NCBI GenBank assembly: GCA_963752595.1
Contig: CAVVYZ010000013.1
Location: forward strand, 64,001-128,000
Source of the DNA: an uncultured delta proteobacterium
GTDB lineage: Bacteria; Desulfobacterota; Desulfomonilia; UBA1062
Length of the DNA: 64,000 bases
Reading direction: 5' to 3'
In this document: piece by piece, positions 37,347 to 53,993 of the stretch
Position numbering within the stretch: the first letter of the stretch is position 1
Layout: every line of letters starts with the position of its first letter
Notes under the pieces: generated by a model
Told to the model about the DNA's origin: nothing
Seen by the model: only the letters and a program-made list of their open reading frames with translations
Databases searched by the model: none
Translations under genes and position numbers: made by a program

Positions 37347-38282
37347 TCAGACGGTCAACACCTTACATACGGCATCGATCTCCGTCTTGTACGTTCCGAC
37401 CAGCTTCTTTGCCTCGCTCTTGAGGTTTTCGATGTTCCCGTTCGTCGCGTTGTCCATGTCATCGGAAGCAACGGTTAGGCTTGTTTGAAGCCGGACGTAT
37501 TGTTTGCCGAGAAACAGGTTCATCTGGTAGTTTGATGCGTCTGCCAGGCCGTCAAACATGCAGCTCAAAAGGGGAGCAACCCAGCCTGCTTTGCCCCAGT
37601 CTTTGGCTTCCGCATAAGCAATCGGCCGGATCAATTCACCTGTCCCGAGCGATAAAACAAAGAAGTCGTTTTCGTCGGGAAAGATCCTTTTTGCTTCAGC
37701 GTATGCAGAAACAGACGGAGAGTTGATAAAAACGCCTCCGTCGACCAATGCCCTCGTCGCTCCGCCGACAGGGACGAGAGCCGGTTCAAAATACGTAGGG
37801 GCAGCAGACGTTGCCCGTGCTGCGTGCTTCATCTGCACCGAGCGGTACTCTTCCCGCCAGCTCTTGAAAAACAGCGGCTCGCGATTCTGGATATCGTAGC
37901 TGGTGATCAATGTTCTTGTTAAGCACGATCCCAGCGGCTCATCCCCGAAGTACTCATCCAGGACCTTCTCAATTCCGCTGTGGGAGTACGTCTCATCCGC
38001 CAGACCTGCTACCGACGACACGCCTTTCCACAGGGAACGCGAGAAGATCTCCTTCCCTCGCGACTGATAAATGTCGGCCAGATCCTTTGCAGAATACTGC
38101 GCCTTGCCCTTGCCGTTATCTTTGGAAAAGCCCAGCGCGAGTATCCCGCCGGTGGAAGTGCCGGCTATCAGGTCGAAGCTTTCCGCTGTCGGTCTCCCGG
38201 TCTTTTCTTCTATTTTCGAAAGAACAAGGGCAGGGATAAGACCACGGATACCACCTCCGTCAATACTAAGGATTTTCTTCAT
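37347..38282 (-). CDS. Patatin-like phospholipase (distal, decayed gene cassette)
   Basis: DGGGIRG, GTSTG, SAAPTYF, DGG motifs. Confidence 0.93.
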   Translation of the reverse strand: MKKILSIDGGGIRGLIPALVLSKIEEKTGRPTAESFDLIAGTSTGGILALGFSKDNGKGKAQYSAKDLADIYQSRGKEIFSRSLWKGVSSVAGLADETYSHSGIEKVLDEYFGDEPLGSCLTRTLITSYDIQNREPLFFKSWREEYRSVQMKHAARATSAAPTYFEPALVPVGGATRALVDGGVFINSPSVSAYAEAKRIFPDENDFFVLSLGTGELIRPIAYAEAKDWGKAGWVAPLLSCMFDGLADASNYQMNLFLGKQYVRLQTSLTVASDDMDNATNGNIENLKSEAKKLVGTYKTEIDAVCKVLTV

Positions 38283-38436: not shown

Positions 38437-38493
38437 GGTCAATGTGCAGATCAGTTGCGGCTGAAAGCCGTCCGGTGGATTAACGGGTTGGGT
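38437..38493 (-). repeat. attC site, degenerate (R'' ACCCAAC; R' mutated to ATTGACC)
   Basis: 57 bp sharing the GCGGCTGAAAGCCGTCCG core with attC 42454..42510. Confidence 0.75.
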
Positions 38494-38502
38494 TTTTTGC
38501 CG

Positions 38503-38823
38503 CTACTGTACTTCTGGACGATCTGTGCCGCATTGCCAACAAGTCGTGAATTGAGGGCCGAGTAATTCACGGCATTTTGGGCATTTCCACGAATGGCCTT
38601 TGATACCAGGTGAGCCTTCATCGTTAATGTATCTGGATGTTATTGATGCAGCTATCTCGAATTGGCTATCATCTAAAATCCATACCGAAGGATGACCGTC
38701 TGTTGTAGCTTGCCCTTTTAATAGAGATTCATTGCGAATTAAAGACAAGATACCTTCAGCCTCAAGAAGAGTTTTTACAAAGTATGCATCGCTTAATCTG
38801 TAAGCTGTAAAGACTTGCTTCAT
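38503..38823 (-). CDS. DUF2007-like protein with C-terminal Cys4 zinc ribbon (cassette)
   Basis: VKTLLEAEGI...RNE; WKCPKC...FTTCWQCG. Confidence 0.8.
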   Translation of the reverse strand: MKQVFTAYRLSDAYFVKTLLEAEGILSLIRNESLLKGQATTDGHPSVWILDDSQFEIAASITSRYINDEGSPGIKGHSWKCPKCRELLGPQFTTCWQCGTDRPEVQ

Positions 38824-39007
38824 TCACATCTCCTGGAAATCCAGAGTCAGTCATGACCTTCGGTTGAAAGCCATAATACACCCCCAAGAAAAGTTTTGGA
38901 ATTGGAGATGGACACGAATAGATTACAGAGTCTTATATTGCTAAAGAAGGGAACTGAGTTTCCATGTGAACTTCCCCAATTACCCCCCCTATGAAACTAT
39001 GCAAATG

Positions 39008-39057
39008 TGTTACCCATGTACCCAGAATATTCTGTTACCTATGTCCCCGTTCGCTCA
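39008..39057. mobile_element. IS481-family-like terminal repeat remnant
   Basis: Tandem TGTTACCCATGT...TGTTACCTATGTCCCC boxes ending in CA; no transposase nearby. Confidence 0.6.
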
Positions 39058-39062
39058 ATGTG

Positions 39063-39383
39063 TTAATTATTGAAAACATCATAGATGGATTGCTTGAATT
39101 GCCCTTTCTCAACAAACTTATCAACAACTATGCGATAGAGATCCCAATTCCACTCGTTGATGCTAAATGGTTTTTTCCCATAACGCATGAAAAACAAAAA
39201 TTCCTTTAGTTCCTCTGCATAACTTGTGCTTCCCATCTGACGATTCCTCACCGCTCCTTTTATGCGGTAAGAAATACGTTCAACGGAATTCGCTTCTTCT
39301 TCTGCAACTTGGATAATCTCATGGTAATCTTTGTCTTTGATACGATCGATGAAATCAGAGAAACTGGATCTTCTGTTTGTCAT
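39063..39383 (-). CDS. Hypothetical protein (cassette)
   Basis: GAGGAG RBS; 106 aa; stop lies inside an R''-like AATTAAC. Confidence 0.75.
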   Translation of the reverse strand: MTNRRSSFSDFIDRIKDKDYHEIIQVAEEEANSVERISYRIKGAVRNRQMGSTSYAEELKEFLFFMRYGKKPFSINEWNWDLYRIVVDKFVEKGQFKQSIYDVFNN

Positions 39384-39407
39384 AGCTCCTCTCTTTCAAA
39401 GGCAATG

Positions 39408-39464
39408 GTATAACGCCACGCGTCACCGGCGGCTTAAGCCGTCCGGTGGATGCGATGGTTAGGC
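39408..39464 (-). repeat. attC site (R'' GCCTAAC; R' GTTATAC)
   Basis: 57-bp imperfect palindrome; TAA of the upstream ORF lies within R''. Confidence 0.88.
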
Positions 39465-39852
39465 TGCTCTATCCAAAAGCCTCAATGCATCTTTTTTTAC
39501 AGACAGCAAAGAGATCCCAGCTTTCTGGATCTGCTCAGCATTCCATGTATCCGGATCACGCCAAAATCTACTTTTATCATGCAATCTAAAGGCAAGTTTA
39601 CGATCAATTCTCATTACCAGGAATGAAGTATTAGACCATAATTCAGCCAATTCATTTTCTATTCTTCTATCTCGGTCTGCACCCTCAGCCCTTAGTCTAC
39701 AATATGTCTCCAGTTTTCTCCGCTGCTTCGACAACGACACGTAAAGTTTCAGCAGTCTTGCTGTTACGGGTAACTTTTTTTGCTTCAATATATGCCAAGA
39801 AAGCAGTAACAGCAGAAACTAATGATATCCAATTTGATATTTCATCACTCAT
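39459..39852 (-). CDS. Hypothetical protein with N-terminal hydrophobic helix (cassette; frameshift near 39710)
   Basis: GAGGA RBS and ATG 39852 give MSDEISNWISLVSAVTAFLAY...AEKT; removing one G joins it to ETYCRLR...LLDRAA*. Confidence 0.65.
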
Positions 39853-39907
39853 AGATCCTCCAAGCACTCATTTGATTAAGAATTGAGATTTCAAATTATA
39901 TGTTAAA

Positions 39908-39961
39908 GCCTAACGTGCGGATCAGCGGTGGCTGTAAGCCGTCCGCTGGATTTGGTTGGGC
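39908..39961 (-). repeat. attC site (R'' GCCCAAC; R' GTTAGGC)
   Basis: 54 bp; near-identical to attC 42454..42510 with a 3-nt deletion. Confidence 0.88.
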
Positions 39962-39965
39962 TGTA

Positions 39966-41274
39966 TCATAATGTCCCAATATGTACAGAACTCGACATGA
40001 CTCCAGGAATCTTTGCGACAGCATCGACAATTAAATTAATCCTGTGGAAGTCCTCGACTATCAGTACTGCGACTAGGTCTACCGAGCCCAATGTACGGGT
40101 AACTTCTAATACTTCCCGGAAATGCTTTGAGTTCATTCTCGACATCTTCAAGGAATTTAGGGTGAGAGAGTGTAAGGTTCGCGTACACCTTAATCTTCCC
40201 CCCTCTTGGCGGTATAACTCCTTGCTGTGTAGTCTGCTCTTTTGACCACTTCTTATGAATTGTTTCAATTAGCTGATCCGTTGCACGGCCTACATTACCA
40301 TCGCGTAAATCGAGATATACAACGTCACGGAGAAGGGGTGGGATCTCAACATCATCCAGCAAGATTGGCAGTAGTATTGCTTGCCCCTGGCCTGAGATTT
40401 GCCAACTCATTGCTGCATTCAATTCTTTTTGAGCCCAAGCACTGCTTAGGGATTTGTTCGAAATAAAGAATGCAACAAAATCGGATGAATCTAGTCCATG
40501 GGCGATGTTTTGAATCAGACTATCGCCTGTCCTAATTTCTGCTTCATCAATCCATACTTTTATACCGCCTTGTATAAGCAGCTCAGCCACATTGCGGACA
40601 ATACCCTTGTCAGCATGAGAGTGACTGAGAAATACCGTTGGCTTTTGGTCAGCGTTTGCAGTAGCCGCAACTCTAATAGTACGGCGAATGGTCGACAAGA
40701 TAAGGTCGCGTGACAATCCAAGTTTTTCAGATTCGCCCACGAGTTCCTCTATATCAGACTGCTTAAGGCCAGAGTTGGAGTGGCTTTTCCCGAATTCCTC
40801 AATGGTCTGCATTGTACGCCCAAGGTCAGCAGCCACACGAACAGCCAAATCATGCCCATTTTTGAAGTATGCAACTGTGTGACGTTCCTGAAGAACACTT
40901 TTCCATCGGTCGAGTAGACGAATTTTTTCAGGATCGCGTTCTATGTTTCTTGGCAAAACCGGAGTGTTCTCATCAAGCATATAGACGAGACATGGCTTCC
41001 TTAGTCGAAATCCTTCCTCATATTCGGCTTCCGAGAAAGAGATGCTAAGCCCCGATACAAGACTTCCATAACGATGTCCAACTATCACAACGAGAATATC
41101 GCTCTTTCTTACCTCCGCTAAACAGGTCTCGATTGGCACATCTGGACGGGCACCAAAAAATTCCATTGAATCATGCTGCAACTGCAATTTCCGAACAGCA
41201 TCCAACACAGCCTCTCGTTCGTCCGCCAAGTCAGAAAACGTGCTGCATAGAAATACCATCAAGTTTCGTTTCAT
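39966..41274 (-). CDS. DUF4062 + TIR + Lrp/AsnC ligand-binding domain fusion (cassette; one extra base at 40115-40117)
   Basis: VFLCSTFSDL..ER...G.RYGS...EAEY (DUF4062); VFLSHSHADK...VWID...S.W...EL (TIR); FPEVLEVTRTLGSVDLVAV...AKIPGVMSS in the shifted frame. Confidence 0.8.
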
Positions 41275-41293
41275 CTGATCGTTCCTGTTATAT

Positions 41294-41354
41294 GCCTAAC
41301 GCTAGGCATCAGCCGCGCGGCTATGCCGCGTCGGCCTGGATGCGCTGGTTAGGC
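41294..41354 (-). repeat. attC site (R'' GCCTAAC; R' GTTAGGC)
   Basis: 61-bp palindrome with perfectly complementary R boxes; TAA of the upstream ORF lies within R''. Confidence 0.92.
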
Positions 41355-42416
41355 TTTTACTCGTCTGACTAAGGACCGAACCCATGACATAGCAGACTCA
41401 ATGGCCCAGTCAGTTTGAGGTTGTGTGAGCGTTGGCATTGGCTCTGATCCCGGGCCATGCCCAAGTGAGTTCCGAACCTTCCGAAAATAGTCTTTTAATA
41501 TCTCACCCTCCCACGGAGCGAGGAGGCTACCATTGTTCTTGCTCACTAGATTATCTATGTACGCGGCAGCGCCGGTTTCAGTTCCACGTGTCCAACCCTT
41601 TATGTCTGAAACGATTTTTATTGCGCTTTCAAGCGCCTTTGCTGCGAATATGGCTGGGTCTTTATCATTTGAATCTCGACGATCAAGCGCCTCCTTCATA
41701 TCGATGTCCACGTTCGCCCAAATCGGGTCAGCAACTAGCTCCCAAAAAGGCTTTGCGATGTTCTGCTCGATCGTCTGATCGTGGGAAACTTGAATAAAAC
41801 CGTTGTGATATGTCAAAGGTGCTCCGGCGCGGCGAAAGCGCTCGTTGAGTTCGGTAACTTGTTCACGAAACACGTTATTAATGGACGCATTCCAAGCTTT
41901 GGCTCCGTCCACTGCACTTCCCTGGACCCTGAAAGCTCTACTTGGAGTGAGATTGCGGAATGCCGCAACATCAAGTGTTTGGGGTGATTGTGCGTTAATT
42001 CTGGCGACTTCTTCCTCTCGTAAACGCATTGCGAGTTCGATGAAGCTGAGCCTATCTTTGATGTAACTGTCAGGATCTTGAAGTCCAAGGTGAGGTTTTG
42101 CTGTGACGAACTGCTCGCAAACATGGTCCCAGCCAAACCAACCTGAAATTGGGAACTCTTGCCCTAAGGCATTCTTTTGTGTGTATGAATAGTAGCGTTG
42201 AGCAAGCTCTTTGAGACCGAGTTCTCTAGCTAGCCTGTCGTGCAAACCCTTCCACTTAACTTTGTTTGATGCGTGTTCCTTGCCGTCAGAGTCATAGTAG
42301 GGGAATAGGTCCCTTGCGATAGCGATTGTTTGCGTTAAAAGACGCCCCTCGTGCTCTGTATAGGTGGACCAGATTGGGAACTTGAGATACCTATATGCAA
42401 ATATGTCTGTCAGCAT
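41349..42416 (-). CDS. AbiJ-like protein with C-terminal HEPN-like domain (cassette)
   Basis: N-terminal MLTDIFAYRY resembles AbiJ-NTD4 proteins; ALESAIK and RNSLGH (Rx4H) motifs. Confidence 0.72.
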   Translation of the reverse strand: MLTDIFAYRYLKFPIWSTYTEHEGRLLTQTIAIARDLFPYYDSDGKEHASNKVKWKGLHDRLARELGLKELAQRYYSYTQKNALGQEFPISGWFGWDHVCEQFVTAKPHLGLQDPDSYIKDRLSFIELAMRLREEEVARINAQSPQTLDVAAFRNLTPSRAFRVQGSAVDGAKAWNASINNVFREQVTELNERFRRAGAPLTYHNGFIQVSHDQTIEQNIAKPFWELVADPIWANVDIDMKEALDRRDSNDKDPAIFAAKALESAIKIVSDIKGWTRGTETGAAAYIDNLVSKNNGSLLAPWEGEILKDYFRKVRNSLGHGPGSEPMPTLTQPQTDWAIESAMSWVRSLVRRVKA

Positions 42417-42453
42417 TTTTCGTCCTCTGCGAATATTCGATTTGTGTCCTTAA

Positions 42454-42510
42454 GCCTAACGTGCGGATCAGCGGCGGCTGAAAGCCGTCCGCTGGATTTG
42501 CTGGTTGGAT
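42454..42510 (-). repeat. attC site (R'' ATCCAAC; R' GTTAGGC)
   Basis: 57 bp; R'' is the exact complement of GTTGGAT at the start of the same cassette. Confidence 0.92.
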
Positions 42511-43649: not shown

Positions 43650-45380
43650 TCAGTTCCTTGTTTTGGATTGTGCCATCATCGTTTCCGTGATCGGGTGCTC
43701 TTCCGGCAGATGATCCGGCAGGGATTTCTCCACGAGCAGCGTGTCGTTGTTCTCTATCGGGAGCACGTTGAGCGTGTCGGCAAAGGATATCCAGTGGGGC
43801 AGGTTGAGCTTCTTGCCCTCCGGGTGGTTCCAGGTGCGGTACCAGAAGAGGTCGTTGACCGATTTCCTCTTCTCCATTGCCTGGCGCTCCGCGATCATGG
43901 CGTCCTGCTCGCGCTTGGCGCAGATCGAGATGACCGCCTGCATCTTGTCGCCCGGCTTGATGGCAGGGGCGAGGACGTCGGCAAATCCGACCGCGGTGCT
44001 CGTTACAAGCTGCTCTTCGCTGTCGAGGAGCTCGGTGGAATGGATCGGGCCGGTCATGCAGAAGGCGCCGTATTTCAGGTCGTCGCCCTCGGGGATGTCG
44101 GTCGTCCCGTCGAGGTGTATGGAGTTCAGGCCGCACTGGATCGCTTCGCCCACGGCATGCTCCACGACATCGATCGCCAGTTTGTACTTTTTCACCATTG
44201 CCATGTCGATGGCGAAGAATACCACCCTGTGGCCGTCCTCCCTGGGTTTGAGAACCTTCTTACCCATTTCGACGATGATCTTCGCATACTGCTTGTAGGT
44301 CTCGAAATCGCAGGCGCTGAACCTGGGGTCTTTCTTGTTTATTTCAAACGCATCGAGCACCTCGATGAATGCCTTGTCCATGCCTCTCTTGGCGCGGTTT
44401 CTCATGAGAGAAAGGATCAGCTTGCCCTTGGGCGTGGTGCCGTCCATGATGTGGAGCTTGACTGCCTCGCGGACGCCCAGCCTGCTGAAGGTGTAGTTGC
44501 AGCTGCCCACGAAGTTGTCGATGACCCTGTCCGGAACCGTCAGGCTGAAATCGGCATTCCGGCGCTCGCTCTTGCGCTCGATGAGCTTGGCGCCTGCAAC
44601 GGCCATCATCTGGGGGTCGAAGGATGCCCTGTCCTCGATCTGCTTGAATCCGAGCTGGACGATGGTCACGATCTTTCCGCCCTGGTCCATGCCCGGGAGC
44701 ATGACGAGGTTTTTCAGCATCTTGTAGCCCTCGCTGTTCAGGCCGTTCGCGAGCTCCTCGGACAGAGAGTGCCTGATCACGTTCATCCCGATGTTTCCGC
44801 CGAGCACTGCGCCGATCCCATTGATGAGGTTGTGCTCGAAGGTGCCCATGTCGAGGTTCTCCAGGCTGCGGACGCTGGGAGGGATGGGCTTCCGGCGTAA
44901 GCCGAGAATGTCCATGAAGTCTCCCTTGTAGCCCGTGTTTATCAAAACCACCGTTGCAAAGGCGTTTTCTGCAAACCTCTCGCATGCCTTGACCACCTTC
45001 ATTTTCGAGAAGGCTTCTTTGCATTCGGTGTTGAAGGTCCAGTCGAAGTACATGCCCTGCCAATGCTGGGAATAGGTTGCGCACGAGGCCTTCAGCCCGC
45101 ATGCCAGCACCTGGCCGAGCCTGTATTTGTTCGGCGTCTCCTTGATGTTGAACGGTGCGAAGTCCTTGCCCTTATAGAAGCTCGAGCGCCAGATGTGGCG
45201 GATGGCCTGGTTCTGCTTCTCCGTGATGGAGGTGGGGCAGATCAGGTAGGGTATCTCGCAGGTGCCGGGGTGGCGGGCGGGATACCATTGCGACCGGTGT
45301 ATCGCAGCGTTGCCCTCCCTGGCGATCTTCCTTCCGTCATTTTTCCCGTATACTCCGCTTTCGCCCTGTTTTTTAACCAT
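43650..45380 (-). CDS. Uncharacterised 576-aa soluble protein
   Basis: GAGGA RBS; intact ORF with host-like GC-rich codon usage; no family recognised. Confidence 0.8.
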   Translation of the reverse strand: MVKKQGESGVYGKNDGRKIAREGNAAIHRSQWYPARHPGTCEIPYLICPTSITEKQNQAIRHIWRSSFYKGKDFAPFNIKETPNKYRLGQVLACGLKASCATYSQHWQGMYFDWTFNTECKEAFSKMKVVKACERFAENAFATVVLINTGYKGDFMDILGLRRKPIPPSVRSLENLDMGTFEHNLINGIGAVLGGNIGMNVIRHSLSEELANGLNSEGYKMLKNLVMLPGMDQGGKIVTIVQLGFKQIEDRASFDPQMMAVAGAKLIERKSERRNADFSLTVPDRVIDNFVGSCNYTFSRLGVREAVKLHIMDGTTPKGKLILSLMRNRAKRGMDKAFIEVLDAFEINKKDPRFSACDFETYKQYAKIIVEMGKKVLKPREDGHRVVFFAIDMAMVKKYKLAIDVVEHAVGEAIQCGLNSIHLDGTTDIPEGDDLKYGAFCMTGPIHSTELLDSEEQLVTSTAVGFADVLAPAIKPGDKMQAVISICAKREQDAMIAERQAMEKRKSVNDLFWYRTWNHPEGKKLNLPHWISFADTLNVLPIENNDTLLVEKSLPDHLPEEHPITETMMAQSKTRN

Positions 45381-48269: not shown

Positions 48270-48331
48270 ACCATGGCCGTATTCGCGATTCCGTCCTTCA
48301 GTGAATATGGCCGCAGCATGCACAGGAAGCC

Positions 48332-49294
48332 ATGAGACAGTACATCCTCAGGCGGATTCTCTACTCGTTTCTCATCCTTTTCTTCATATCGATCTTCATC
48401 TTTACGCTGGGAAGGGTGCTTCCCGGAGACCCGGTGCAGGCCGTGCTCATGACTTCCCGGATGGGCCCGGTGGATGCTGAGGTCATGGAGGATCTCAAAG
48501 CCCAGTTCGGCCTGGATAAGCCTCTGCCCGTGCAGTACCTCGTCTGGGCCGCGAACTTCATCCGGGGAGACTGGGGCATTTCCATAGCGAGCGGCGAGGA
48601 GGTGCTGCGCCATGTTCATGCACCGGCTGCCCATCACCCTGGAGCTTTTTTAGGCTCGGTGCTTCTGGGTCGTGCATCATCGGGTTCCCGTTCGGCATCA
48701 TCTCTGCGCTCAGGCGCAATTCACGGCTCGACGTCTCGCTGACGATCGGTGCCATCATCGGCATTTCCATCCCGGTGTTCTGGGAGGGGATCGTCATGAT
48801 CTATCTCTTTGCCGTGATGATTCACATCTTTCCGCCGTCGGGCTATGTGCCCTTTTCCGAGAGCATGAGCGGCAACCTCCTCTCCGTTGCCATGCCCACC
48901 TTCATCATGGGCACCCAGGGGGCAGGGCTCCTCTGCAGGTTTGTACGGTCGAGCCTGCTGGAGGTTCTGGGCCAGGACTATATCCGGACGGCATATGCCA
49001 AGGGCCTGCACAGGACAGGCGTGATCCTCCGGCATGCGGTGAAGCCTGCAATGATACCCGTGGTCACGATCGCCGGCCTTGCCTGGGGCTATGTGGTGGC
49101 CGGGTCTTTTCATCGTGGAGTACATGTTCGCCATCCCGGGCCTGGGGCGCATGGGCGTAAACGCGATCTTCGCAAACGATTTCCCGGTCATCCAGGCTAC
49201 CCTGGTCATGGTTGCGCTCAATATCCTGACCGTGAACCTCATGGTCGATCTCCTGTACGGATACATCGACCCGAGGGTGAGGATGCAACAATGA
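48332..49294 (+). CDS. Opp/Dpp ABC permease B (frameshifted)
   Basis: YILRR, PGDP, GLDKPLPVQY, QDYIRTAYAKGL, DFPVIQ, IDPR. Confidence 0.85.
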
Positions 49295-50200
49295 AGCCGG
49301 ATAGAGATTCTTCGACCGGGATGACGTGCCTGCTCCGCCTCCGACCCCCTCACAAGCTGTATTCCGTGCCCTGATACGACACAAGATAGCGCTCATAGGC
49401 ATGGCCATCATGCTGTCTTCTCATGCTTGTAGCGGTATTCGCGCCGCTCATCCTGCCCCGTACGACCCGAACGAGCAGGACCTCTACCATGTCCTGGAAG
49501 GCCCATCCCGGCAGCACCTGCTCGGTACTGACGACGTGGGCCGGGACCTGCTGTCGCGGGTCATCTACGGTTCGCGGGTAACCCTGATGATGGGCGCCGT
49601 CTCCACCCTGTTCTCGGGCCTTATCGGCGTGTTGCTCGGCCTGGTAGCGGGCTACAAGGGCGGGATCATCGATATGGTCATCATGCGCATCACCGACACC
49701 TTCATGTGCATGCCTGCCCTGGTCCTGATCCTTGCCATCATGGCCGCCATGGGCCCGGGCATGGAGAGTGTCATCCTCTCCATCACGATCCTTGCGTGGA
49801 CCGCGTTCGCGCGCATCGTGCGGGGCCAGGTGATGCTGGTGCGCGAGCTCCCCTATGTGGAGGCGGCCCATGCCATGGGCGCCTCGGGTTTCAGGATCAT
49901 ATTCCGGCACCTGCTGCCCAATGTCATGGCCCCGATCATCGTTACCACCACCATCGCGCTGGGCGGAAACATCATGCTGGAGAGCGCGGTGTCCTTCCTG
50001 GGCTAGGCGTCCAGCCGCCCACGTCGAGCTGGGGAAACGAGCTGCGGATCGGCTATTCCTACCTGGAGATCGTGCCGCTGTTTTCCATTGCGCCGGGATT
50101 GATGATAACCCTGGCGGTCCTGGCCTTCAACTTCATGGGCGACGGCCTCAGGGATGCCCTCGACCCGCGGCTCCGCGGAAATGACAGGATGATGAAATAA
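49291..50200 (+). CDS. Opp/Dpp ABC permease C (frameshifted)
   Basis: HLLGTDDVGRD, YVEAAHAMGA, RHLLPN, GDGLRDALDPR. Confidence 0.85.
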
Positions 50201-50210
50201 GGTAAAAGAT

Positions 50211-51180
50211 ATGCTGCTCGATGTGCAGAAACCTGACCACGCATTTCCTTACCGATAACGGCATCGTCAAGGCCGTGGACGATGTCTCCTACGGTCTGGA
50301 TGAAGGAGAGACGTAGGCCATCGTGGGCGAGAGCGGCTGCGGCAAGACCGTGAGTGCCCTTTCGCTCCTGGGCTCATCCCGGACCCGCCGGGCAGGATCG
50401 TCAAGGGCGAGGTCCTGTTCGAGGGCAGGGACCTCCTGAAGACTGAGCGAAGACGAGATCTGCCGCATCCGGGGCAACCGGATCGCCATGATCTTCCAGG
50501 AACCCATGACCTCGCTCAACCCGGTGCTGACCATCGGAAGCCAGGTCATGGAGCCTCTGATGCTCCACAAGGGCATGAACAGGAAGGAGGCGCTCCGGGA
50601 ATGCATCGAGCTGCTGAAGATGGTGCGGATCCCCGATGCCGCGAGCCAGGGTCAACGCCTTTCCCCACCAGTTCAGCGGCGGCATGCGGCAGCGGGCCAT
50701 GATCTCCATGGGGCTGGCCTGCAACCCCAGGCTCATCATTGCCGATGAGCCCACCACGGCCCTGGACGTGACCATCCAGGCCGAGCTCCTGGAGCTCATG
50801 AAAGGATCTCACCCGGGACCACGGGACCGCCCTGATCATCATCACCCACAACCTGGGCATCGTGGCCCGGTATGCGGACAGGGTCATGTCATGTATGCCG
50901 GAAAGATCATCGAAAAGGCCGTGACCAGGGACCTCTACCGCGACTCCGCTGCACCCGTACACGGTCGGGCTCATGGAATCCGTGCCCCGGCTGGACCAGG
51001 ACATCAGGCAGAAGCTCATGCCCATCGAAGGTCAGCCCCCGGACCTCTGCCAGGCTGCCCCGGGCTGCGCCTTCCACCCGCGGTGCAGGCATGCGCTTGA
51101 CCGGTGCAGGGAAGAGGCCCCTGTCTCTGAAGGAAGATCGCCGAAAACCATGAGGCGGCGTGCTGGACTCGATGCATGAC
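50211..51180 (+). CDS. Opp/Dpp ABC ATPase D (heavily frameshifted, in-frame TAG at 50314)
   Basis: [45 protein letters not shown] across frames; end approximate. Confidence 0.78.
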
Positions 51181-52179
51181 ATGAACAGAGTGATGTCCTC
51201 ATCCGGGTCAAGACCTGAAAAAGCATTTCCCCATCTATCAGGGAGTGATCTTCAAGAAAAAGATCGGCGATCTCAAGGCCGTCGACGGCGTGAGCTTCAC
51301 ATCCACAGGGGGAGACCCTCGGGCTCGTGGGCGAGAGCGGCTGCGGCAAGACCACCACCGGCAGGACCATCCTGCAGCTCGAGCGACCGACCTGCGGAGA
51401 GGTACTGTTCGAGGGCACGGACATCACCGGGCTCGGGAAGTATGAGCCAGGAAGCTCAGGAAGCACATGCAGATCATCTACCAGGACCCCTTCGGTTCCC
51501 TGGACCCCCGGATGACCGTCGGCGACATCGTGGGCGAGCCCTTGATGATCCATCAACCTGGCAAGGGGAAGAGGCGAATACGCCGACCGGGTCGGAAGCC
51601 TGCTGGAGACGTGGGCCTGAACCCGGCCATGGCCGTCGAGGTATCCCCACGAGTTCAGCGGCGGTCAGCGGCAGCGCATCGGCATAGCCCGGGCGCTGGC
51701 GGTCAAGCCGGACTTCATCGTCTGCGACGAGCCGGTATCCGCCCTGGATGTGTCGATCCAGGCCCAGATCATCAACCTCCTGGAAGACCTGCAGGAAAGG
51801 TTCAGCCTCACCTACCTCTTCATCGCCCACGACCTGCCGTGGTCAGGCACATCAGCGACCGGATCGCCGTGATGTACCTGGGCGAGATCGTCGAGATCGC
51901 GGACCGGCGGCGACCTGTACCATAACCCGGCGGCACCCCTACACCCGGGCGCTGCTCTCGGCCGTGCCCATCCCGGACCCGGAAGTCGAGTACGACACGG
52001 GAGCACTGCATGATACAGGGGCGAGGTGCCGAGCCTGCTCAATATCCCGGACGCGTGCAGGTTCCATCCCCGCTGCCCGCTGGCGCAAACGATCTGCACG
52101 GGAGACCAAGCCCGTGCTGAAAGCACTGGATACAAGCGGGCACATGGTCGCCTGCCATTTCGGGATGATAAGACGCTGA
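51173..52179 (+). CDS. Opp/Dpp ABC ATPase F (heavily frameshifted)
   Basis: [41 protein letters not shown] across frames; start approximate. Confidence 0.78.
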
Positions 52180-52207
52180 AACGTTTCAAGGAGGTCATGA
52201 GGAACTG

Positions 52208-53993
52208 ATGCGAAAAGATACTGTTCACGCTATCCTGCATCGCAAGCGGGGTGCTCATCTTCCTTGGGGATGATCGCCCTGCCGCCTGCCCGGGCGCAGG
52301 AAAATCCGAAGGCGAGACCGGGCTGGATGGAATGGGGCCCGAAATATTCTCCCGCAAAGCCTGTCAGGGGCGGGAACCTGCGCATAGCCTTTCCGGTATA
52401 CATCGGGGTGATGAACCCTAATCACTTTCCTGTCCTGGACTGGCCCACCATGAGTTATATGTACGAAAGGCTCATCCACTTCGACAGCAGCTACAGGCCG
52501 ACGCACCCTGGCTCGCCGAGTCGTGGAAATACATCGATGACGTTACCGTGGTCATGAAGCTAAAGAAGGGCGTCATGTTCCACGACGGGTCCCCGTTCAA
52601 TGCCCGGAGCCTCAAATACCAGATGGACTGGATCATGGACAGGGACAACATGGCCTGGACCAGAGCCTGGATCGAACCCCTGAAGTCGGTCGAAGTGGTG
52701 GACGAGTACACGGTCAGATGGCATTTCAAGAGGCCCTGGGGATCGTTCCTGGGGACCATGGCAAGCGTTCCCGGGTATGCCGTCTCGGCCAAAGCCCTTG
52801 AACGCGATGCCGCAAGAGCAAAGGCGAAAAGGATCGAGCGGGAGCTCGTCACTGCGCGGCGCAAGGCCAAGAATGGAAAAGACCCGGATAAGGCGGCCAA
52901 GGCGGCTCAGCTCACGGTCGACCTGGAGGCGCAGCTGAAGAAATACACGGAGCTTGCTAAGGGCGCCGGGCCGCTCGATATCAACCCGGTCGGCACCGGG
53001 CCGTATATGTTCGAATCTGCCAGCACGGATAATTACATACAATTGAAGCGCAACCCCGACTGGTGGTTCGGCAAGAGCATAGGGCATCCCGACATGCCGT
53101 ATTTCGACGGGATCCGGGTCTCGGTCATCCCGGATCCGTCCGTCCGGCTGGCAAACCTCAAGGCGGGCAAGCTCGATTTCATTCTGCTCGATGCCACCCA
53201 GTACCGGCTCGTGAAAAACGATCGGAACTTCAACTCCGGAGCCATGCCCATGAACTGGCTGGTGTTTCTCACCTTCAACCATGCGAAGGGGCCGTGCTCG
53301 GACATCAGGGTCCGTCAGGCCATCTCCCATGCCATAGACCGGAAGGCCCTGGTCATGGGGACCCAGTTCGGGCTCGGAAGGGTGTCGAGCTGCGTGTACC
53401 CCGACGACCACTGGGCACATAATCCGGACCTGAAGCCCGTGAGCTATGACCCCGGGCTGTCGAAGAAGCTTCTTGCCCAGGCCGGGTATGCGAACGGGCT
53501 CACCATAAAAGGCTTTACCCTCAATACACCCGAGGCCCAGGCCTTTGCAAAGGCCGTGATGGCCATGCTGGCAAAGGTCGGGATCACGTGGCAACCGGTC
53601 TTTCTGGGCATCACCGGGATGATCGAGCCTTTCCGGAAGCTGGACTTCGACGTGATCGGAAACCTCTACCCCTGGATTCAGGAGCCGGACCACGCCGCCA
53701 CGCTGCTCTACGATCCTGCCAGCCCCTTGAATAACGGCAGGAGCAATAACCCGAAGGCGTTAGCACTCATCAAAGAGGGAAGAACCACGGTGGACGAGGC
53801 AAAGAGGGCAAAGATCTACCATGAGCTTGAAAAGGTGCTTTACGGCAATTACGAAGATGCCTGGCTGTGGTGGCCGACGGCGGTCCTGGTCAGCAGCAAA
53901 AATGTCATGGGATACAATAAGGACATGCACCGGCAGTATGGGGAAGGCTATATTTTTTCGCATCCGCAGTGGTTCAGGGACGGGCATCCGTGA
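52208..53993 (+). CDS. Family 5 (Opp/Dpp) ABC substrate-binding protein (frameshifts in the 5' part)
   Basis: KLKKGVMFHDGSPFNA, PVGTGPY, DIRVRQAISHAIDR. Confidence 0.88.

Follow-up and report, generated by a model that had tools for sequence, protein, structure and literature searches.

The window, a 64,000-nucleotide stretch of DNA, carries on its minus strand a 412-residue open reading frame (ORF; 41274-40036) whose C-terminal tail of 26 residues is out of frame. What protein does this locus encode, and how might such a protein act? The original prediction read the ORF as a DUF4062 domain followed by a TIR domain that keeps the W-x3-E motif. Pfam analysis bore this out, assigning residues 7-87 to DUF4062 (PF13271; E 6e-22, 78 bits against a cut-off of 24.7) and residues 214-335 to TIR_2 (E 5.5e-29, 101.6 bits against a cut-off of 28); with the W-x3-E motif present, the latter classifies as a canonical TIR domain. 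It was further proposed that one G too many at 40115-40117 hides an Lrp/AsnC ligand-binding (RAM) domain, the complete protein having 435 residues. Indeed, one extra base in this run (CCC on the plus strand, GGG on the minus strand) splits a C-terminal RAM domain between two frames. The shifted frame alone matched AsnC_trans_reg with an E value of 1.5e-5 and 25.2 bits (cut-off 25), and reading through the break with an X gave a protein of 435 residues with all three domains above their cut-offs, AsnC at E 7e-7 and 29.4 bits. In addition, a homologue-tail profile placed its positions 2-30 in the ORF frame (E 4e-5) and 21-77 in the shifted frame (E 1e-21), with nothing below E 3 in the remaining four frames. 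The protein is thus a fusion of four parts, DUF4062(NIR), helical hairpin, TIR and Lrp/AsnC(RAM), carried by an integron cassette at these coordinates:

40774..41274, minus strand: DUF4062/NIR NADase-family domain with stalk helix (residues 1-167; boundaries from the P0003 model)
41025-41023, minus strand: codon of the predicted catalytic E84, inside the DUF4062/NIR domain
40645..40773, minus strand: helical hairpin linker (residues 168-210), without a family match
40231..40644, minus strand: canonical TIR domain with W280-x3-E284 (residues 211-348; E284 codon 40425-40423)
39966..40194, minus strand: Lrp/AsnC ligand-binding (RAM) domain (residues 361-435), split over two frames
40115..40117, minus strand: frameshift, one surplus base in a run of three, a probable assembly error judging from intact homologues and the indel load of the assembly

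The AlphaFold2 model of the intact P0003 (mean pLDDT 86, pTM 0.54) presents the same organization: the NIR domain (residues 1-167), a helical hairpin (172-205) made of helices 172-184 and 189-205, the TIR domain (211-348), a loose, low-confidence linker (350-359) and a RAM-type fold (361-432) of β-α-β-β-α-β topology. PF01037 scored 39.6 bits on P0003. The hairpin linker had no match in the Atlas, and the tail profile matched FL11 (E 1.6e-11) as well as stand-alone RAM structures of 75-83 residues.

The setting of the gene is that of an integron cassette, as originally predicted: a single ORF is flanked by an R' box on one side and by an attC site able to form a hairpin on the other. The features of the array are:

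41294..41354, minus strand: attC upstream of the gene, with the R' box GTTAGGC ending 19 nt ahead of the ATG; bottom-strand hairpin z -3.8
39908..39961, minus strand: attC of this cassette, its bottom strand folding as one hairpin, z -2.5
38437..42510, minus strand: array of five attC-like sites, four of which fold better than chance
41349..42416, minus strand: preceding cassette, encoding an AbiJ N-terminal domain 4 protein of 355 residues (Pfam E 1.3e-16)
39459..39852, minus strand: next cassette gene, also frameshifted when compared with an intact homologue in G235 (L137)

The stop codon of the shifted frame (39968-39966) lies 4 nt from the R'' box GCCCAAC (39961-39955), exactly the distance that had been claimed. 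The spacer after R'' is 2 nt long in this attC, compared to 5 nt in the sister sites, a shortening that may impair IntI-mediated excision. The attC-like site at 38437-38494 is the one that folds no better than chance (z -1.0). This contig gave no match to an integron integrase; contig C20 has an intact IntI (L134; G000:C20:116000-135500). L134 itself is a complete integron, comprising IntI, an attC array with insertion sequences and small gene pairs that by eye resemble toxin-antitoxin cassettes. Around the gene, the AbiJ_NTD4 cassette (41349-42416) also gave a weak NCBIfam STM4504/CBY_0614 match below its cut-off. A patatin-like phospholipase (37347-38282, minus strand) just past the array matches PADLOC phospholipase effector models (E 3e-67), and a 576-residue ORF upstream of the array (43650-45380, minus strand) has no Pfam or NCBIfam match.

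Cassette boxes recur at the homologous loci. From the 55 fetched loci that reach the TIR domain, 15 were dropped (8 duplicates, 7 truncated or broken) and 40 kept; an R' box lies upstream in 19/40, an R'' box downstream in 17/40 and both in 9/40. The control ORFs of this genome gave 64/3224, 88/3224 and 5/3224, and other ORFs in the same loci 14/328, 22/328 and 2/328, respectively; p-values for this enrichment overstate it, since some of the loci are close kin. Besides the window, L001 from a Deltaproteobacteria MAG is the only RAM-bearing locus with DNA, and it has both boxes.

The break at 40115-40117 is probably an assembly error, because frameshifts also affect rpoB, the gene of the next cassette and 12 of 98 orthologues; this estimate assumes a 5-10% base rate of true cassette decay. 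The rpoB matches switch frame six times in this assembly (G000:C20:152816-156914). Compared with two same-genus genomes, the 12 broken orthologues among 98 amount to 0.16 shifts per kb, a rate from which the chance of a break in a gene of this length is P = 0.18; the other 86 of the 98 genes are unbroken and rpoC is intact. That the local copy is a true pseudogene is possible, though clearly less probable. The break in the next cassette gene, for which no credible Pfam family was found (best E 0.04), lies about 400 bp from that at 40115-40117, and two breaks within 400 bp are as compatible with decay of the array as with poor polishing of this stretch. On the side of a pseudogene stand the intact rpoC, the 86 unbroken genes, the shortened attC spacer and the W that this copy has in place of R291, a residue found in at least 90% of the homologues among the matches listed. 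Across 109 columns this copy departs at one, under the family median of 2. Indel errors are patchy in the assembly, and an apparent peptide ABC transporter locus at about 48300-52300 in the window looks fragmented in the ORF list. Such indel-rich assemblies conceal domains: the stored protein of this gene, P0002, carries no AsnC annotation.

Homologue search yielded 462 proteins from 8000 candidates scored, and the best 120 of the 462, including the gene's own product, were analysed; the tally comprises P0001 and 119 homologues, excludes P0002 and is biased towards the query. At least 15 natural homologues possess the whole fusion, the best being 83% identical over 435 residues, and the 13 best non-self matches cover 97-100% of the query. 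Three homologues, at 83, 71 and 66% identity, have exactly 435 residues. Among the matches listed, Pfam confirmed AsnC in 14/119, and a 15th, P0082, aligns across the tail; the RAM domain is kept throughout its clade down to about 46% identity. Both putative active sites are conserved: among the matches listed, the catalytic-type E84 as well as Y85 and E87 are present in 119/119 homologues, E284 in 118/119 and W280 in 113/119.

Further analysis of the family revealed a constant NIR-hairpin-TIR core of about 350 residues followed by a variable tail. Among the 120 matches listed, 16 have the RAM tail, 14 a Fis-type HTH tail (including P0039 and P0047; HTH_8 found by Pfam in 13/119), another 16 a conserved tail not described before (tail A; about 100 residues, at 345-447 in P0031, and shared by 15 relatives) and 6 a second tail, which is helical (about 95 residues). 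Tail A matched nothing in Pfam or the Atlas and nothing credible in the PDB. The remaining 68 of the 120 matches listed have short or other tails, 65 of them with at most 36 residues past the TIR domain, a few of which may be truncated. Homologues that end right after the TIR domain had been named in the original prediction as evidence against it, and these 65 of the 120 do so. They look complete, since an R'' box lies at most 60 nt past the stop in 15 of the 31 tail-less genes with DNA. In a core-only tree, the RAM-bearing proteins fall on one side of a branch with a support of 93, while the remaining kinds of tail characterise further branches; the tree, built by a quick method, is unrooted, with a midpoint root for drawing only, and leaves gain and loss of tails unordered. 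Among the 15 RAM-bearing homologues, mean identity is 71% for the NIR domain, 58% for TIR, and 39% for both the hairpin and the RAM domain. The natural tail-less, RAM, Fis HTH and tail A members provide a series for testing the accessory role of the tails and the double active sites. By eye, the tail of P0044 is winged-helix-like and those of P0043 and P0050 are coiled-coil-like.

The distribution of the family is patchy. None of 400 other genomes of the phylum gave a match at E<=1e-60, 60 relatives gave one match, restricted to the core, none of 72,556 plasmid records covers 80% of the gene, and viral contigs gave a single match, to the NIR domain only.

What, then, could such a protein do? 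The original prediction described DUF4062 as TIR-like. It is more than that: according to two 2026 preprints (10.64898/2026.05.01.722283, 10.64898/2026.09.04.749371), DUF4062 is an anti-phage NADase, termed NIR, which depletes NAD+ in PsAvs2, Vulcan, Vesta and Swarozyc. Recognition of NIR as an immune NADase thus dates from no earlier than 2026. Swarozyc at rest forms autoinhibited NIR-stalk oligomers, whose rearrangement is brought about via the C-terminal part (10.64898/2026.05.01.722283). The KpSwz structure (PDB 10wc) matches residues 4-166, stalk included, with an E value of 4.6e-8, and in this alignment E84 stands opposite the Ala that the E97A construct of KpSwz carries, on our reading of the numbering offset. 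Both proteins have an N-terminal DUF4062 with Glu at the same position, a stalk and a C-terminal accessory part, all encoded by a single gene. However, the similarity stops at residue 166: KpSwz has an HTH/winged AUX, whereas here the stalk leads into a helical hairpin, a Glu-bearing TIR and a RAM domain.

Vulcan, Vesta and PsAvs2 likewise combine an N-terminal NIR effector with a variable C-terminal part, as far as the accessible text describes them, and a C-terminal ligand-binding domain has been proposed for VstA of Vesta (10.64898/2026.09.04.749371). Compared to these systems, the present protein lacks the C-terminal HEAT repeats of Vulcan (by Pfam and the P0003 model) and the STAND NTPase and TPR or other repeats of Avs/NLR-like NIR proteins including PsAvs2. 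It also lacks the alkaline phosphatase partner of Vesta, none of which recurs in 41 loci or has a Pfam match among 121 neighbours. Moreover, it differs from all three in bearing a second NADase-type domain, so that two different Glu-bearing NAD-consuming domains share one chain. Evangelion, in the accessible part of its description (10.64898/2026.06.25.731849), is also a mobile single gene with a DUF4062 core, an E-Y motif and a diversified C-terminal region; by architecture, its AUX is short and devoid of recognisable domains, unlike the TIR and recognisable tails found here. The same source reports that Eva02, a DUF4062 protein tested there, gave no protection, which counts against the defence role proposed below. 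The original prediction knew the architecture from no named defence system, and no NIR-TIR-RAM system was found in the literature searched, as far as its accessible text goes, although figures there listing DUF4062 architectures may include a TIR fusion. Lrp, AsnC and integron are absent from the main texts of 10.64898/2026.05.01.722283, 10.64898/2026.09.04.749371 and 10.64898/2026.06.25.731849. By analogy, the protein appears to work like Swarozyc, Vulcan and Evangelion, yet by its architecture it probably belongs to none of them.

We propose, with moderate confidence, that the gene encodes a single-gene dual-NADase abortive-infection protein switched by its oligomeric state, in which the RAM domain is an accessory that clusters or tunes the enzymes rather than the indispensable sensor. 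For this protein we infer catalysis, oligomer state, trigger and defence role as follows. The NIR-stalk half would self-associate, as in Swarozyc, and an infection-triggered change of the oligomer would switch on the two predicted NAD-cleaving domains. The trigger would be read by the hairpin-TIR half, because nothing else follows the stalk in tail-less members. The RAM domain would raise avidity or set the threshold, and loss of NAD+ would stop the infected cell.

The TIR domain itself allows a second reading, which we consider very unlikely, that it makes an ADP-ribose-derived messenger, in a Thoeris-like manner, for the NIR domain of the same chain or for a distant effector, leaving a single killer domain. 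Its nearest structures are of the AbTir type (7uxu; target TM 0.79, 30% identity), and AbTir produces cyclic ADPR isomers; both active sites are conserved, and weak matches to the ThsB profile were obtained. These matches reach only 17 bits, under the cut-off of 21.2, and the NCBIfam Thoeris and retron-TIR models scored far under theirs. Furthermore, the core has no recognised messenger-binding domain, and no effector is conserved in the neighbourhood. The canonical W-x3-E-bearing TIR is shared with bacterial TIR NADases such as AbTir, Thoeris ThsB, Cat1 and TIR-APAZ, but no ThsA, CARF, Argonaute or cyclase partner is present here.

The neighbourhood bears on the proposed role of the dual-NADase protein in defence. 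Integron cassettes are known to carry defence genes, according to the accessible text of 10.1101/2024.07.02.601719. The original prediction suggested checking the homologues for association with integrons or defence islands: R' and R'' boxes are enriched, but raw PADLOC matches are not, being found for 14 of 121 neighbours (22 loci) versus 19 of 128 control ORFs. Sorted by eye and after the fact, the defence-type PADLOC matches (ThsB, bSEFIR, AbiJ, restriction, TIR) number 11 in neighbours and 3 in controls. The lack of raw enrichment, together with the nutrient-sensing nature of the RAM fold (accessible text of PMC2995911), would suit a toxin for stress, starvation-dormancy or cassette maintenance that lowers NAD+ under metabolic control. 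We regard this as the least probable of the alternatives: all four bacterial NIR systems, as far as their accessible descriptions go (10.64898/2026.05.01.722283, 10.64898/2026.09.04.749371), act against phages, the AbiJ-type cassette adjoins the gene, and several homologues are flanked by ThsB, bSEFIR, AbiJ or restriction genes. In addition, the 573 ORFs that surround the gene at 41 loci include no recurring partner of any kind, antitoxin-like or other.

The RAM tail resembles the stand-alone RAM proteins DM1/STS042 and FL11 (PDB 2e1a, 2cyy; PMC2995911, PMC2504300) in sequence, predicted fold and the Gly/Asp pair of the pocket; unlike them, it is joined to enzymes rather than to an HTH, and it has often lost Thr-x-Thr. 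In Grp, the ligand is contacted by G99 and D102 and by T132 and T134 of the neighbouring subunit (accessible text of PMC2504300). RAM assemblies move between dimers and octamers with ligand, and some RAM members do not bind amino acids (accessible text of PMC2995911). With residue equivalence to Grp inferred via the FL11 alignment, the pocket Gly and Asp are present in 16/16 fused RAM domains. By contrast, both Thr of Thr-x-Thr are kept in 7/16, compared to 73/78 stand-alone RAM domains scored with the same profile (p 1.5e-5, the sequences being non-independent), and Ser-x-Val replaces Thr-x-Thr in this copy and in P0003. With Gly and Asp invariant, the RAM domain may still be gated by a ligand. 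Canonical amino-acid gating may apply to some members of the clade, judging from these residues; in the branch of this copy it appears doubtful. Of the 148 newly returned matches of the tail profile, 78 have at most 100 residues and represent stand-alone RAM proteins. P0123 and P0125, of 560-600 residues, are made of three or four RAM domains.

Ligand binding to the RAM domain as the switch that clusters the enzymes was the mechanism originally predicted. In its general form, the RAM domain of this clade would be a true sensor: binding of an amino acid or metabolite would tip the equilibrium between dimer and octamer and so cluster or release both enzymes. The nearest relatives of the tail, stand-alone RAM proteins and FL11/DM1-type structures with ligand-controlled assembly (accessible text of PMC2995911), argue for it, as do the invariant Gly and Asp, the 7/16 domains with both Thr and the retention of RAM in its clade down to about 46% identity among the matches listed. 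P0171 (376 residues), which has a helical N-terminus and an unrelated TIR domain, also bears a RAM domain with the full Gly/Asp/Thr-x-Thr set. If this reading were true, nutrient sensing would be tied directly to abortive infection. Nevertheless, RAM gating is not needed by the family, as 65 of the 120 matches listed are tail-less, and six-frame scans of loci L001-L114 turned up no RAM domain encoded by a gene of its own. Conservation of the Thr pair is loose, with Ser-x-Val in this copy and in P0003, and P0171 is apparently a singleton, PF01037 occurring in none of its other 119 relatives among the matches listed. The switch is thus not supported as stated, and we judge RAM sensing unlikely, preferring the RAM domain as an accessory of the dual-NADase core.

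The swapping of tails raises the alternative that regulator-derived tails bind phage proteins, or join host regulators that phages attack, and so set the trigger specificity of the core. Both tails that could be identified derive from transcription regulators (RAM in 16 of the 120 matches listed, Fis HTH_8 in 13/119), and the tail is much less conserved than the enzyme domains. According to accessible text, the HTH/winged sensor of Swarozyc binds the phage portal (10.64898/2026.05.01.722283), and the stand-alone RAM protein DM1 co-assembles with FL11 into hetero-octamers (PMC2995911). However, relaxed constraint would equally give low tail identity, and the majority of the matches listed are tail-less; we hold tails as bait to be quite improbable. 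A broader and tentative proposal, somewhat unlikely as it stands, is that a constant NIR and TIR core plugs in host transcription-regulator domains (RAM, Fis HTH) as sensors or baits, the RAM clade answering an amino-acid signal or phage attack on Lrp-type regulators by suicide. If true, NAD-depleting defence would gain a class of trigger that the literature searched does not describe, as far as its accessible text goes. The same NIR clade also occurs without this TIR domain in L012-L023 and L062-L103, fused to many other C-terminal parts, which include long helical regions, repeats and, by eye, PAS-like and HD-GYP-like segments.
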